Shown here one piece after another: positions 1,026 through 2,647 of a stretch of 14,550 bases of DNA (its first letter is position 1; every line of letters starts with the position of its first letter). The DNA lies in NCBI RefSeq assembly GCF_003334335.1, contig NZ_QOWQ01000060.1; one strand, given 5' to 3'. Under the pieces are notes generated by a model, which saw only the letters and a list, made by a program, of their open reading frames with translations, searched no databases and was not told the DNA's origin. A program made the position numbers and the translations under genes. Origin of the DNA: Escherichia coli. Its GTDB lineage: Bacteria; Pseudomonadota; Gammaproteobacteria; Enterobacterales; Enterobacteriaceae.

Positions 1026-2399
1026 TTATTTCAACGCTTCCGGCAGCGTCACAATCCACAGTTCACTGTCAGACTCCGGTTTCTCCAGTGGCTTCACTCT
1101 GAGGGTCGTTTCAACCTGCTTGTCGTCAAGCGTCAGCTTTCCTTCCGCGTTCACCCGATAATCCTTGAATATCTTGCCCTCGACCGGATGTTGCATCGCC
1201 ACCTTCACGCCAAAGTCGTTATCGTTCGCCACCGCCAGCGTTTTGCTGTCGATCAGCGCCAACCCTTCAGCCTTCTCCTGCTGCCAGCCCAAGGAGCGCA
1301 GATCAACAACCTGCGTTTTCTGCGCAAGGGTAATGCCGCGCTGTGACAGGGTTTTCTCATCATCAAACTCCGGATACTCACCCGGCTTGTCGAAGCCTGA
1401 CAGGTCGCTCGCCTTATTGAGATCGACCTCGTAAATCAGGTTACGCATTCTGTTGTTTTTATCTCTTCCCTGTTCGATCAGCAGGATGTGCTGGTTATCG
1501 AGCGCCACGATGTCTCCGATTTTAGCGTCGCTGTTTTTGCTGTAGGCCGCGCTGTCGATAGGATAACCGTACATCGCGGTTTTTCCGCTTGCCGGATCGA
1601 AGCTCACCAGACGCGTAAACAGCGCCTTTTTCTTGCTCTTAGCGTCGATATCCAGCGTACTTTGCACGGCGACAATAATACGCCCGTCCGGCATACGGGT
1701 GAGGCCTTCAAAGCCGCGGTTCGCCTGACGCCATTTGAGGATATTTGGCAAACCGCCCGCAATCGCTTTTTCCCCTTCCGCCGCCTGCGGACCGTGGATT
1801 GCCAGGATTTTCCCTTTACTGTCGATGTTAATCAGGAACGGGCCATACTCATCGCACAGCCAGTAACCTCCTTTACCATCCGGAGTGATCCCTTCCGTAT
1901 CCAGCCCGCGATTATCCCCCTTCAGTCTATGTAACGTGTCGCTGAAGGCCACTTCATTGGTGGAGCCAATCACGTCGCTTGCCAGCGGCAGACCGTTGAT
2001 CGCGCCTTTATCGTCATGCAGAGGACGGGGATCGATGGCCTCCGCTTTGCCGTTTTGTACACGAATCGTCATCAGCAGCGGCGCGAAATCTGGCGTAACG
2101 AAAATTTTAGTTTCGTTTTTCCCCTCTTTCGGTGAATCCGCGTTCGGACCGCGATCGGTAATGGTTGCGAATGTCAGGGCATCGCCCTGTTTACCGGTGA
2201 ACAGCAGGCCAGAACCTATCCCAACCGGAAGGCCGTTCGGGAATGCACTGGCAAATGCGCCGGCATAGTTCACGTGCGTGCCTTCTGGAAAACTGACGAC
2301 ATAGCGCTCAGCCGTAGGTTGTGCCGCCAGGGCAGAGAAAGAGAGCGTACAACCGATTAGCACGGGAATAATTTTTCTTTTCATATTGTTAGCATCCAT
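1026..2399 (-). CDS. Secreted protein, probably of the phytase-like (esterase-like activity of phytase) family
   Basis: A 457-codon ORF with an N-terminal signal-peptide-like sequence (MKRKIIPVLIGCTLSFSALAAQ). The NRGFEGLT and WLCDEYGP motifs recall the phytase-like beta-propeller family. The family call is from memory, and the true start may be the second Met at 2384. Confidence 0.8.
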   Translation of the reverse strand: MDANNMKRKIIPVLIGCTLSFSALAAQPTAERYVVSFPEGTHVNYAGAFASAFPNGLPVGIGSGLLFTGKQGDALTFATITDRGPNADSPKEGKNETKIFVTPDFAPLLMTIRVQNGKAEAIDPRPLHDDKGAINGLPLASDVIGSTNEVAFSDTLHRLKGDNRGLDTEGITPDGKGGYWLCDEYGPFLINIDSKGKILAIHGPQAAEGEKAIAGGLPNILKWRQANRGFEGLTRMPDGRIIVAVQSTLDIDAKSKKKALFTRLVSFDPASGKTAMYGYPIDSAAYSKNSDAKIGDIVALDNQHILLIEQGRDKNNRMRNLIYEVDLNKASDLSGFDKPGEYPEFDDEKTLSQRGITLAQKTQVVDLRSLGWQQEKAEGLALIDSKTLAVANDNDFGVKVAMQHPVEGKIFKDYRVNAEGKLTLDDKQVETTLRVKPLEKPESDSELWIVTLPEALK

Positions 2400-2500
2400 A
2401 AAGTGAAGATCACACTACACCATAAAGAAGAAACGAGTCAGGAAAATGACATCGAATGGCAACATGCGCGGGCCTGAGGCCAAAGAAATATAAAACACTG

Positions 2501-2516
2501 TTGTTATTTGTAACAA
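2501..2516. promoter_or_regulatory. Perfect palindrome TTGTTA-N4-TAACAA, candidate operator upstream of the phytase-like gene
   Basis: The inverted repeat is seen directly, about 100 bp upstream of the minus-strand start at 2399. No cognate regulator is identified. Confidence 0.2.
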
Positions 2517-2647
2517 CGGAAACATTTACGGAAATTATTTGTCTTTCTTCGTGATCAAAAATGCTGTGTCTTGTTGGATTGGAGTGATGAGGGCTGCGTT
2601 TAGGAAACGCCCTATATTGTACGGTTGCATTATCGCGGTAGGGGTAA

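Follow-up and report, generated by a model that had tools for sequence, protein, structure and literature searches.

What does the phytase-like gene at positions 1,026 to 2,384 of a 14,550-nucleotide (nt) stretch of Escherichia coli DNA (assembly GCF_003334335.1, contig NZ_QOWQ01000060.1; hereafter the window) encode, and what governs its expression? The gene stands alone among insertion sequence (IS) remnants, and a preliminary description of the locus had singled out a perfect palindrome upstream of it as a possible operator and had held that its regulation could not be read from the sequence. The DNA upstream of the gene and of its orthologs argues otherwise, as it carries a conserved Pho box with the canonical promoter geometry, and the gene is probably controlled by PhoB. 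The reading as a whole, namely a PhoB-regulated, Sec-exported periplasmic propeller phosphoesterase that travels on a mobile unit and is preceded by a palindrome of chance origin, appears rather likely, and its functional component, the phosphoesterase activity, is proposed with moderate confidence.

Promoter region and Pho box

In alignment A1, the DNA upstream of the gene diverges save for two blocks. One of them, GGATGCTAACAATATG, spans the ribosome-binding region and the start codon, includes a GGA element, and is near-invariant across the five aligned sequences, the sole change being a T-to-C in E. lignolyticus. The other, ATGTCATTTTnCTGACAC, fits the E. coli Pho box, in which the 7-nt sequence CTGTCAT is directly repeated after a gap of 4 nt (PMC4415409). 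The elements of this region and of the gene that follows are listed below, with coordinates in the window.

2435..2452, minus strand: Pho box ATGTCAT-TTTC-CTGACTC at the -35 position, with 3 mismatches out of 14 to CTGTCAT-N4-CTGTCAY
2419..2424, minus strand: TATGGT, the -10 hexamer of the proposed promoter under PhoB control, at a distance of exactly 10 nt from the downstream end of the Pho box
2395..2397, minus strand: GGA, weakly similar to a Shine-Dalgarno element and 10 nt ahead of the ATG at 2384 (alignment A1)
2385..2399, minus strand: in-frame upstream extension (MDANN) of the 457-amino-acid (aa) open reading frame (ORF), probably untranslated leader
1026..2384, minus strand: region encoding the PF13449 'Phytase-like' protein (452 aa, then the stop codon), whose sequence equals WP_000823243.1; supported by RefSeq, Pfam, and orthologs
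2325..2384, minus strand: Sec signal peptide of the signal peptidase I (SPase I) type, residues 1-20, with predicted cleavage between ALA and AQP, judged by inspection

The box recurs at the orthologous genes. When the 200 nt upstream of each ortholog are searched for CTGTCAT-N4-CTGTCAY, 9 of the 10 yield a best box of 0-3 mismatches, placed between -63 and -76 relative to the start codon, and in all 10 a TAnnnT hexamer follows exactly 10 nt past the box. Specifically, Cronobacter displays the perfect consensus (CTGTCAT-TAAT-CTGTCAC, 10 nt, TATAAC), and the boxes of Yersinia and Pseudescherichia contain 2 mismatches each. The upstream regions of Pseudescherichia, Yersinia, and Serratia share blastn homology with the E. 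coli upstream DNA over at most a few bases, and the position of the box is the same. With one representative for each of five independent lineages, the Fisher combined p is 1.4e-8. Moreover, the same script applied to K-12 promoters as positive controls recovers a box, 10 nt, and TATAGT at phoA, a box, 10 nt, and CATAAT at phoB, and, at pstS, a top-scoring box followed after 10 nt by TATAAC. In low phosphate, PhoB~P would bind the box in place of a -35 element and recruit the sigma-70 RNA polymerase, and transcription would begin near 2412, with a predicted leader of ~27 nt. The conserved Pho box is the useful new point; no paper in the literature searched reports a Pho box here. A longer arrangement is present in Pseudescherichia vulneris (L012, ~3925-3955), where three CTGTCAT-like repeats lie in an 11-bp register (CCGTCAT-CTCC-TCGTCAT-CTTT-CTGTCAT), an extended Pho box to which more than one PhoB dimer could bind.

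The upstream palindrome

The palindrome that had been proposed as an operator lies further upstream, together with a weak promoter-like match.

2500..2517, no strand assigned: GTTGTTA-TTTG-TAACAAC, the palindrome, most likely an inverted repeat that arose by chance in this lineage
2487..2516, minus strand: weak sigma-70-like match TTGTTA-18-TATATT (9/12), with its -35 overlapping the palindrome, possibly a secondary distal promoter

The palindrome exists as described, with a core TTGTTA-TTTG-TAACAA at 2501-2516; its perfect arms are actually 7 bp long, or match at 8 of 9 positions when the next two are included. Its presence can be accounted for by chance. Perfect 7-bp inverted repeats with a spacer of 0-10 number 17 in the window vs 11.3 ± 4.1 in dinucleotide shuffles, and at least one such repeat is generated by 16% of the shuffles of the 281-nt intergenic region (41% G+C; P=0.16). 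The palindrome lies inside alignable native upstream DNA, that is, within the homology to the Enterobacter locus (1023-2539), and in Enterobacter hormaechei, whose protein is 89% identical, the sequence aligned to it, GCTGACACAGATAAAGACAG, is no palindrome. All nine orthologous upstream regions outside the E. coli island lack the repeat (E. hormaechei, E. lignolyticus, Pantoea, a Logan read-run assembly sequence at 86% identity, Pseudescherichia, Cronobacter, Serratia, Yersinia, and the paralog of enterotoxigenic E. coli, ETEC). The comparison with orthologous promoters, which had been suggested as the check on the operator idea, thus speaks against it in nine cases out of nine, including the alignable one of E. 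hormaechei.

The only other palindrome-bearing copy (L008, a metagenome scaffold from ENA) could be taken for a divergent allele, a possibility that was rejected: it is the same IS66-linked island, ~99% identical, with an in-frame deletion of ~62 nt at the equivalent of window positions 1691-1752 that yields the 429-aa variant P0002. Being the same island at this identity, it is silent on selection for the palindrome, and all E. coli copies, which are at least 95% identical to one another, are equally uninformative. The palindrome is therefore most likely a chance inverted repeat, specific to the E. coli lineage and located in AT-rich upstream DNA, and not an operator. Other assignments were tried and dropped: as a LexA, FNR, or CRP site, the half-sites or the spacing do not fit (by eye, against consensus sequences), and as a second, upstream Pho box it would lie ~50 nt upstream of the Pho box and out of the 11-bp register.

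Two functional explanations of the palindrome deserve weighing against its chance origin. It could be a real operator, bound as TGTTA-N4-TAACA by a dimeric repressor (e.g., a LacI-family protein of the GntR/IdnR type) that acts on a distal sigma-70 promoter and adds a second, E. coli-specific layer of control. The perfection of the repeat over 7+7 bp and its overlap with the -35 of the sigma-70-like match speak in favor of this explanation, as does the identity of its outer half-sites, TGTTA/TAACA, with those of palindromes in the promoter regions of gntK and gntT in K-12 (e.g., CTGTTATCGGTAACAT), GntR being known to bind sites of this type; furthermore, TGTTA-N4-TAACA with at most 1 mismatch is found once in the window vs 0.20 expected. 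Conversely, the likeness to the gnt sites was noticed post hoc, the centre of the palindrome (TTTG) is AT-rich whereas the gnt centres are G/C-rich, and the window holds no LacI-family gene. The sigma-70-like match is itself at chance level (2 sites found vs 1.8 expected in the shuffle comparison; CTGACA-18-TACATT at the aligned place in E. hormaechei), and the palindrome, besides being at chance frequency, is destroyed in E. hormaechei and missing from the other orthologs, with near-identical E. coli copies that provide no evidence of selection. A functional operator is accordingly very unlikely. Still less credit can be given to a role as a small hairpin with a U-rich tract on the gene strand, i.e., a weak terminator or insulator against read-through from the upstream IS remnants. 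The minus-strand stem GUUGUUA/UAACAAC is indeed followed by AGUGUUUUAUAUUUCUUU, but the stem has only 2 G-C pairs, its folding energy as RNA (-5.6 kcal/mol, z -1.36) is equalled by 24 of 200 shuffles, the terminator scan made no call, and the hairpin is not conserved, so that this explanation is highly improbable.

Gene product and its proposed export and function

The 457-aa product of the preliminary description corresponds to the maximal ORF (1026..2399, minus strand), which is indeed present. The true start is most likely the second ATG, at 2384, which gives 452 aa, because this is the start in RefSeq and in 120 homologues of 450-454 aa, and the ATG at 2399 is aligned to CTG in E. hormaechei and to AAG in E. 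lignolyticus; the start at 2399 was rejected on these grounds. No Shine-Dalgarno element precedes the ATG at 2399, and the N-termini of the orthologs begin with MK(R/I)K. Read from the second Met, the N-terminus is MKRKIIPVLIGCTLSFSALA followed by AQP and, by inspection, shows n, h, and c regions with an A-x-A motif, the split being MKRK, IIPVLIGCTLSFS, and ALA followed by A. The h-region has a mean Kyte-Doolittle hydropathy of 2.0, no twin-arginine motif is visible by inspection, and the signal architecture is kept in 25 homologues, which bears out the signal peptide originally noticed. A lipoprotein reading of the 'LIGC' stretch was discarded, since too little h-region precedes the Cys and orthologs have T, S, or A in place of Cys12.

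Family membership is clear. Pfam returns PF13449 (Phytase-like; E 7.5e-43, score 147.9) over residues 60-396 of the 457-aa product and positions 4-284 of the 284 of the model, as the single match at E<=10. NCBIfam yields no family at E<=0.1, phmmer vs PDB no match at E<=1, and a profile search vs PDB only single-blade NHL/Pizza-like matches and no phytase. The family is large, as 2065 clusters at 50% identity match the query at E<=0.001, and the literature searched and the AFDB annotations hold no characterised member, in agreement with the poorly characterised family of the preliminary description. No solved structure in PF13449 is detectable by sequence, and a literature search for the accession WP_000823243.1 found no paper citing it. 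The assignment to a phytase-like beta-propeller family thus stands as far as PF13449 is concerned; it does not extend to a Bacillus-type phytase, by Pfam or by fold, and the Pfam name 'Phytase-like' is a label and not evidence of phytase activity.

The protein is confidently predicted to fold as a beta-propeller. An AlphaFold2 model built from a 79-member alignment is all-beta (predicted local distance difference test score, pLDDT, 95.9; predicted template-modelling score, pTM, 0.92), and Foldseek vs PDB retrieves generic propellers only, with a template-modelling (TM) score of at most 0.37. Among the fold matches, YjiK, glutaminyl cyclase, NHL domains, and lactonases rank first, and none of them is a phosphatase; the six-bladed phytase propeller is not the closest fold, and a search of AFDB50 returns only unnamed 'Phytase-like domain' family members. 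The features of a PhoX alkaline phosphatase (a PF05787 match, a twin-arginine translocation signal, and a PhoX-like fold) were not found. In the alignment of 79 homologues, with identities down to 29%, the residues present in at least 85% of the sequences are D77-R-G-P-N81, D162, E164, E179-Y, N222-R-G-x-E226, R258, D291, E304, E339, K371-x-E373, and D388-x-D390-F-G. They are mostly Asp, Glu, Asn, Arg, and Lys, a make-up expected of a metal and phosphate site. Following Sec export and cleavage after Ala20, the protein would act in the periplasm as a metal-dependent (probably Ca2+) phosphoesterase that hydrolyses an organic phosphate ester and so supplies phosphate to the Pst uptake system, with phytate, nucleotides, and phosphodiesters as candidate substrates; the rationale for periplasmic phosphate release would be the same as for PhoA.

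Several points weigh against this proposal. Taken by itself, the E. coli Pho box does not exceed chance expectation (3 matches in the window vs 1.87 expected), so that the case for it depends on its position and geometry and on its conservation across species; it deviates from the consensus at 3 positions, and its second repeat, CTGACTC, matches less well than any other in the set. The box of the ETEC paralog (L010) is poor, with 5 mismatches, and K-12, in which PhoB has been mapped, lacks the gene. Moreover, metal dependence is inferred from residue types alone, and no activity has been demonstrated for any PF13449 member in the literature searched or in the AFDB annotations.

Two other accounts of the function can be set against the proposed Pho-regulated phosphoesterase. 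The protein could be a genuine phytase of the beta-propeller kind that lets E. coli use dietary phytate, in line with the name and origin of the Pfam family and with a Pho-box promoter, which fits phosphate scavenging; in addition, orthologs occur in phytate-hydrolysing soil isolates of Pantoea brenneri, whose authors count the gene among 'phytase encoding sequences' (PMC12697123). Yet the protein has no PF02333 match, PF13449 being its sole Pfam match, and no sequence match to any solved phytase, beta-propeller phytases included; a Pantoea strain without the gene was also isolated as phytate-hydrolysing, and the same authors credit the Pantoea activity to a histidine acid phosphatase (PMC12697123). 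A genuine phytase of this kind is unlikely. Alternatively, the gene may have no link to phosphate. Its product would then serve some other purpose in the periplasm, for instance as a propeller-type lactonase, cyclase, or binding protein, and the resemblance to Pho boxes would be a coincidence or a vestige. The non-phosphatase fold matches, the lack of a characterised family member, and the non-significance of the E. coli box by itself are compatible with this account. Against it, the box and its exact promoter geometry recur independently where the upstream DNA is unalignable (0 mismatches in Cronobacter, 2 in Yersinia and Pseudescherichia), and proteins with a phytase-like domain are induced by phosphate starvation in cyanobacteria and in a diatom; a function unrelated to phosphate is hence quite unlikely.

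The starvation-induced proteins of other organisms support the phosphate role of the E. coli phosphoesterase candidate by analogy. In three organisms, proteins carrying this domain annotation rank near the top for induction by phosphate starvation and/or are secreted. The 'phytase-like' proteins NSP_RS03145 of Nodularia and PtPhos2 of Phaeodactylum respond to phosphate starvation with log2 fold changes of 5.5 (PMC9846622) and 7.4 (PMC7283521), respectively, and NP_896855 of Synechococcus WH8102, a protein with a 'phytase-like' domain, belongs to a set that is secreted and/or induced by phosphate starvation (PMC4949707). It may tentatively be proposed, with more doubt than conviction, that PF13449 represents a widespread class of exported phosphoesterases induced by phosphate starvation, distinct from PhoA, PhoD, PhoX, PafA, and the Bacillus propeller phytases, with a propeller nearer to those of YjiK, glutaminyl cyclase, and apyrase, and that the E. 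coli/Shigella copy would be a mobile member of the Pho regulon that travels with the fec island and on plasmids.

The mobile locus and its relation to known systems

The window is E. coli chromosomal DNA, and many E. coli chromosomes match its region 900-2800 at 99.9% identity. At the annotated identical locus of strain WCHEC020031, the IS66 genes tnpA, tnpB, and tnpC lie beside the phytase-like gene, followed by remnants of IS3, IS5, and IS1 and by fecIRABCDE. The flanking elements are the following.

1..824, plus strand: 3' part of an IS66-family element (tnpC 26-787), from annotation, with the right terminal inverted repeat ending at 824
1023..2539, minus strand: segment with blastn homology to a locus on the chromosome of Enterobacter and its relatives, made up of the gene and the 155 nt of native DNA ahead of it
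2666..2797, plus strand: C-terminal fragment of an IS3-family transposase gene, from the RefSeq annotation of the identical locus

The position of the gene between an IS66 end and a truncated IS3 element is thereby confirmed, the terminal inverted repeat pair of IS66 being GTAAGCGTACAGC.../...GCTGTACGCTTAC. The native segment is 83.5% identical (blastn) to the E. hormaechei loci L002 and L003, and the homology is bounded by the stop codon on one side and by position 2539 on the other. The suggestion that the gene is cargo of IS-mediated transfer also holds: native DNA is confined to 1023-2539, an IncHI1B plasmid has the block 1-3036 at 99.5% identity, and the gene is found on 69 plasmids, 63 Escherichia plasmids carrying it at >=99% identity. 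Of 5426 complete E. coli genomes, 2263 (~42%) contain the promoter region. K-12 MG1655 lacks the gene and, past IS1F upstream of fecI, runs into yjhU. In Shigella flexneri, the gene is orf34 of the SRL pathogenicity island, beside the IS66 genes orf35-37 (PMC6980539). The gene and the 155 nt of its native promoter are best seen as a unit of one gene that moves horizontally, set in an IS mosaic beside the fec iron-citrate operon. Since the window contains the complete ferric-citrate operon fecIRABCDE (5124-12669), separated from the phytase-like gene by ykiE and a copy of IS1F as in the SRL island, a candidate for phosphate scavenging and an iron-uptake system travel together on one IS mosaic.

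The remaining stretches of the mosaic show features of their own. The ~200 nt between the right end of IS66 (824) and the stop codon of the gene (825-1025) resemble neither IS66 nor the Enterobacter locus, and hold an inverted repeat, ATTGGGG-N13-CCCCAAT (~940-966), plus a GGTGACGCTTTC motif similar to an IS66-type end. No canonical terminator is present downstream of the gene. Between the native upstream segment and the IS3 fragment (2540-2665), a terminator-like hairpin lies on the plus strand at 2596-2610 (GCGTTTAGGAAACGC), and a small gene annotated as a YmgB/AriR-family regulator of biofilm and acid resistance (3117-3398, minus strand) is located amid the IS remnants between the phytase-like gene and fec. 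An Rfam scan of 800-3000 on both strands gave no match at E<=1.

Across nine genomic contexts, no neighbour gene is conserved and the gene is monocistronic, as expected for a stand-alone scavenging enzyme. A cobW-family gene adjoins the ortholog in the E. hormaechei, E. lignolyticus, Pseudescherichia, and L009 loci and is followed, in the loci that reach beyond it, by Sel_put- and CstA-family genes, an order that, from these Pfam families, we take to be yjiA-yjiX-cstA. In E. hormaechei (L002, L003, L004), the divergent upstream neighbour is a gene for a YfaZ-family outer-membrane protein, across an intergenic region of 411 nt; what E. coli kept of it is a piece aligned to window positions 2500-2539. 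A 71%-identical paralog (P0078) occurs at 5001-6353 of L010 and on L011 (GCA_024670735.1, GCA_049851605.1), which are E. coli contigs that also carry genes for the heat-stable enterotoxin STb (PF09075), LT-IIB (PF06453), a PhoPQ-related protein, and a ParE toxin, and have the appearance of an ETEC virulence plasmid. Several shortened forms of the protein (P0072, P0081, P0121-P0131) recur frequently in databases and, together with the deletion variant of L008, suggest that the gene decays often.

Provided that the Pho box is functional, an extra enzyme of the Pho regulon is carried by ~42% of sequenced E. coli (including O26, O103, and O104:H4), by the Shigella SRL islands, and by many plasmids, one that studies in K-12 could not have revealed. 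The conserved box is an experimental handle on a large orphan family, through induction by low phosphate, periplasmic location, and hence substrate class. Should PF13449 prove to be a phosphoesterase class, the scavenging of phosphate and that of iron would be linked on one mobile element. The finding is an improvement of annotation and a testable lead rather than a new kind of system, and the palindrome is probably of no consequence.

Compared with known systems, the gene is already known and annotated but uncharacterised. It matches the PF13449 family model over its full length and is 100% identical to WP_000823243.1, and nothing sets it apart from SRL orf34, the gene order tabulated for the SRL island (orf34, IS66 tnpC, tnpB, tnpA) being the same (PMC6980539). 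Its proposed promoter is built as those of phoA, phoB, and pstS, in which an 18-bp box (7-nt repeats, 4-nt spacer) replaces the -35 element 10 nt before the -10, and its product would be an exported hydrolase as PhoA is; in contrast, the phoA and phoB boxes have 1-2 mismatches vs 3 here, and the gene is accessory, mobile, and missing from K-12. With the Bacillus phytases PhyC and TS-Phy (PF02333), it shares a secreted all-beta propeller, conserved acidic residues, and a possible role in phosphate scavenging. The propellers of YjiK, bacterial glutaminyl cyclase, and the SCAN-1 apyrase differ from it in sequence (11-17% identity, with about half of the 452 residues covered), and YjiK and the glutaminyl cyclases are not phosphatases. 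Lastly, the proteins of Nodularia, Synechococcus, and Phaeodactylum, for which those papers define no substrate (in Synechococcus, for strain WH8102), are larger, multi-domain, from distant organisms, and under other regulators, and their PF13449 membership is the annotation given in the papers; they resemble the E. coli protein in the domain name and in being secreted and, in Nodularia and Phaeodactylum, are strongly induced by low phosphate.

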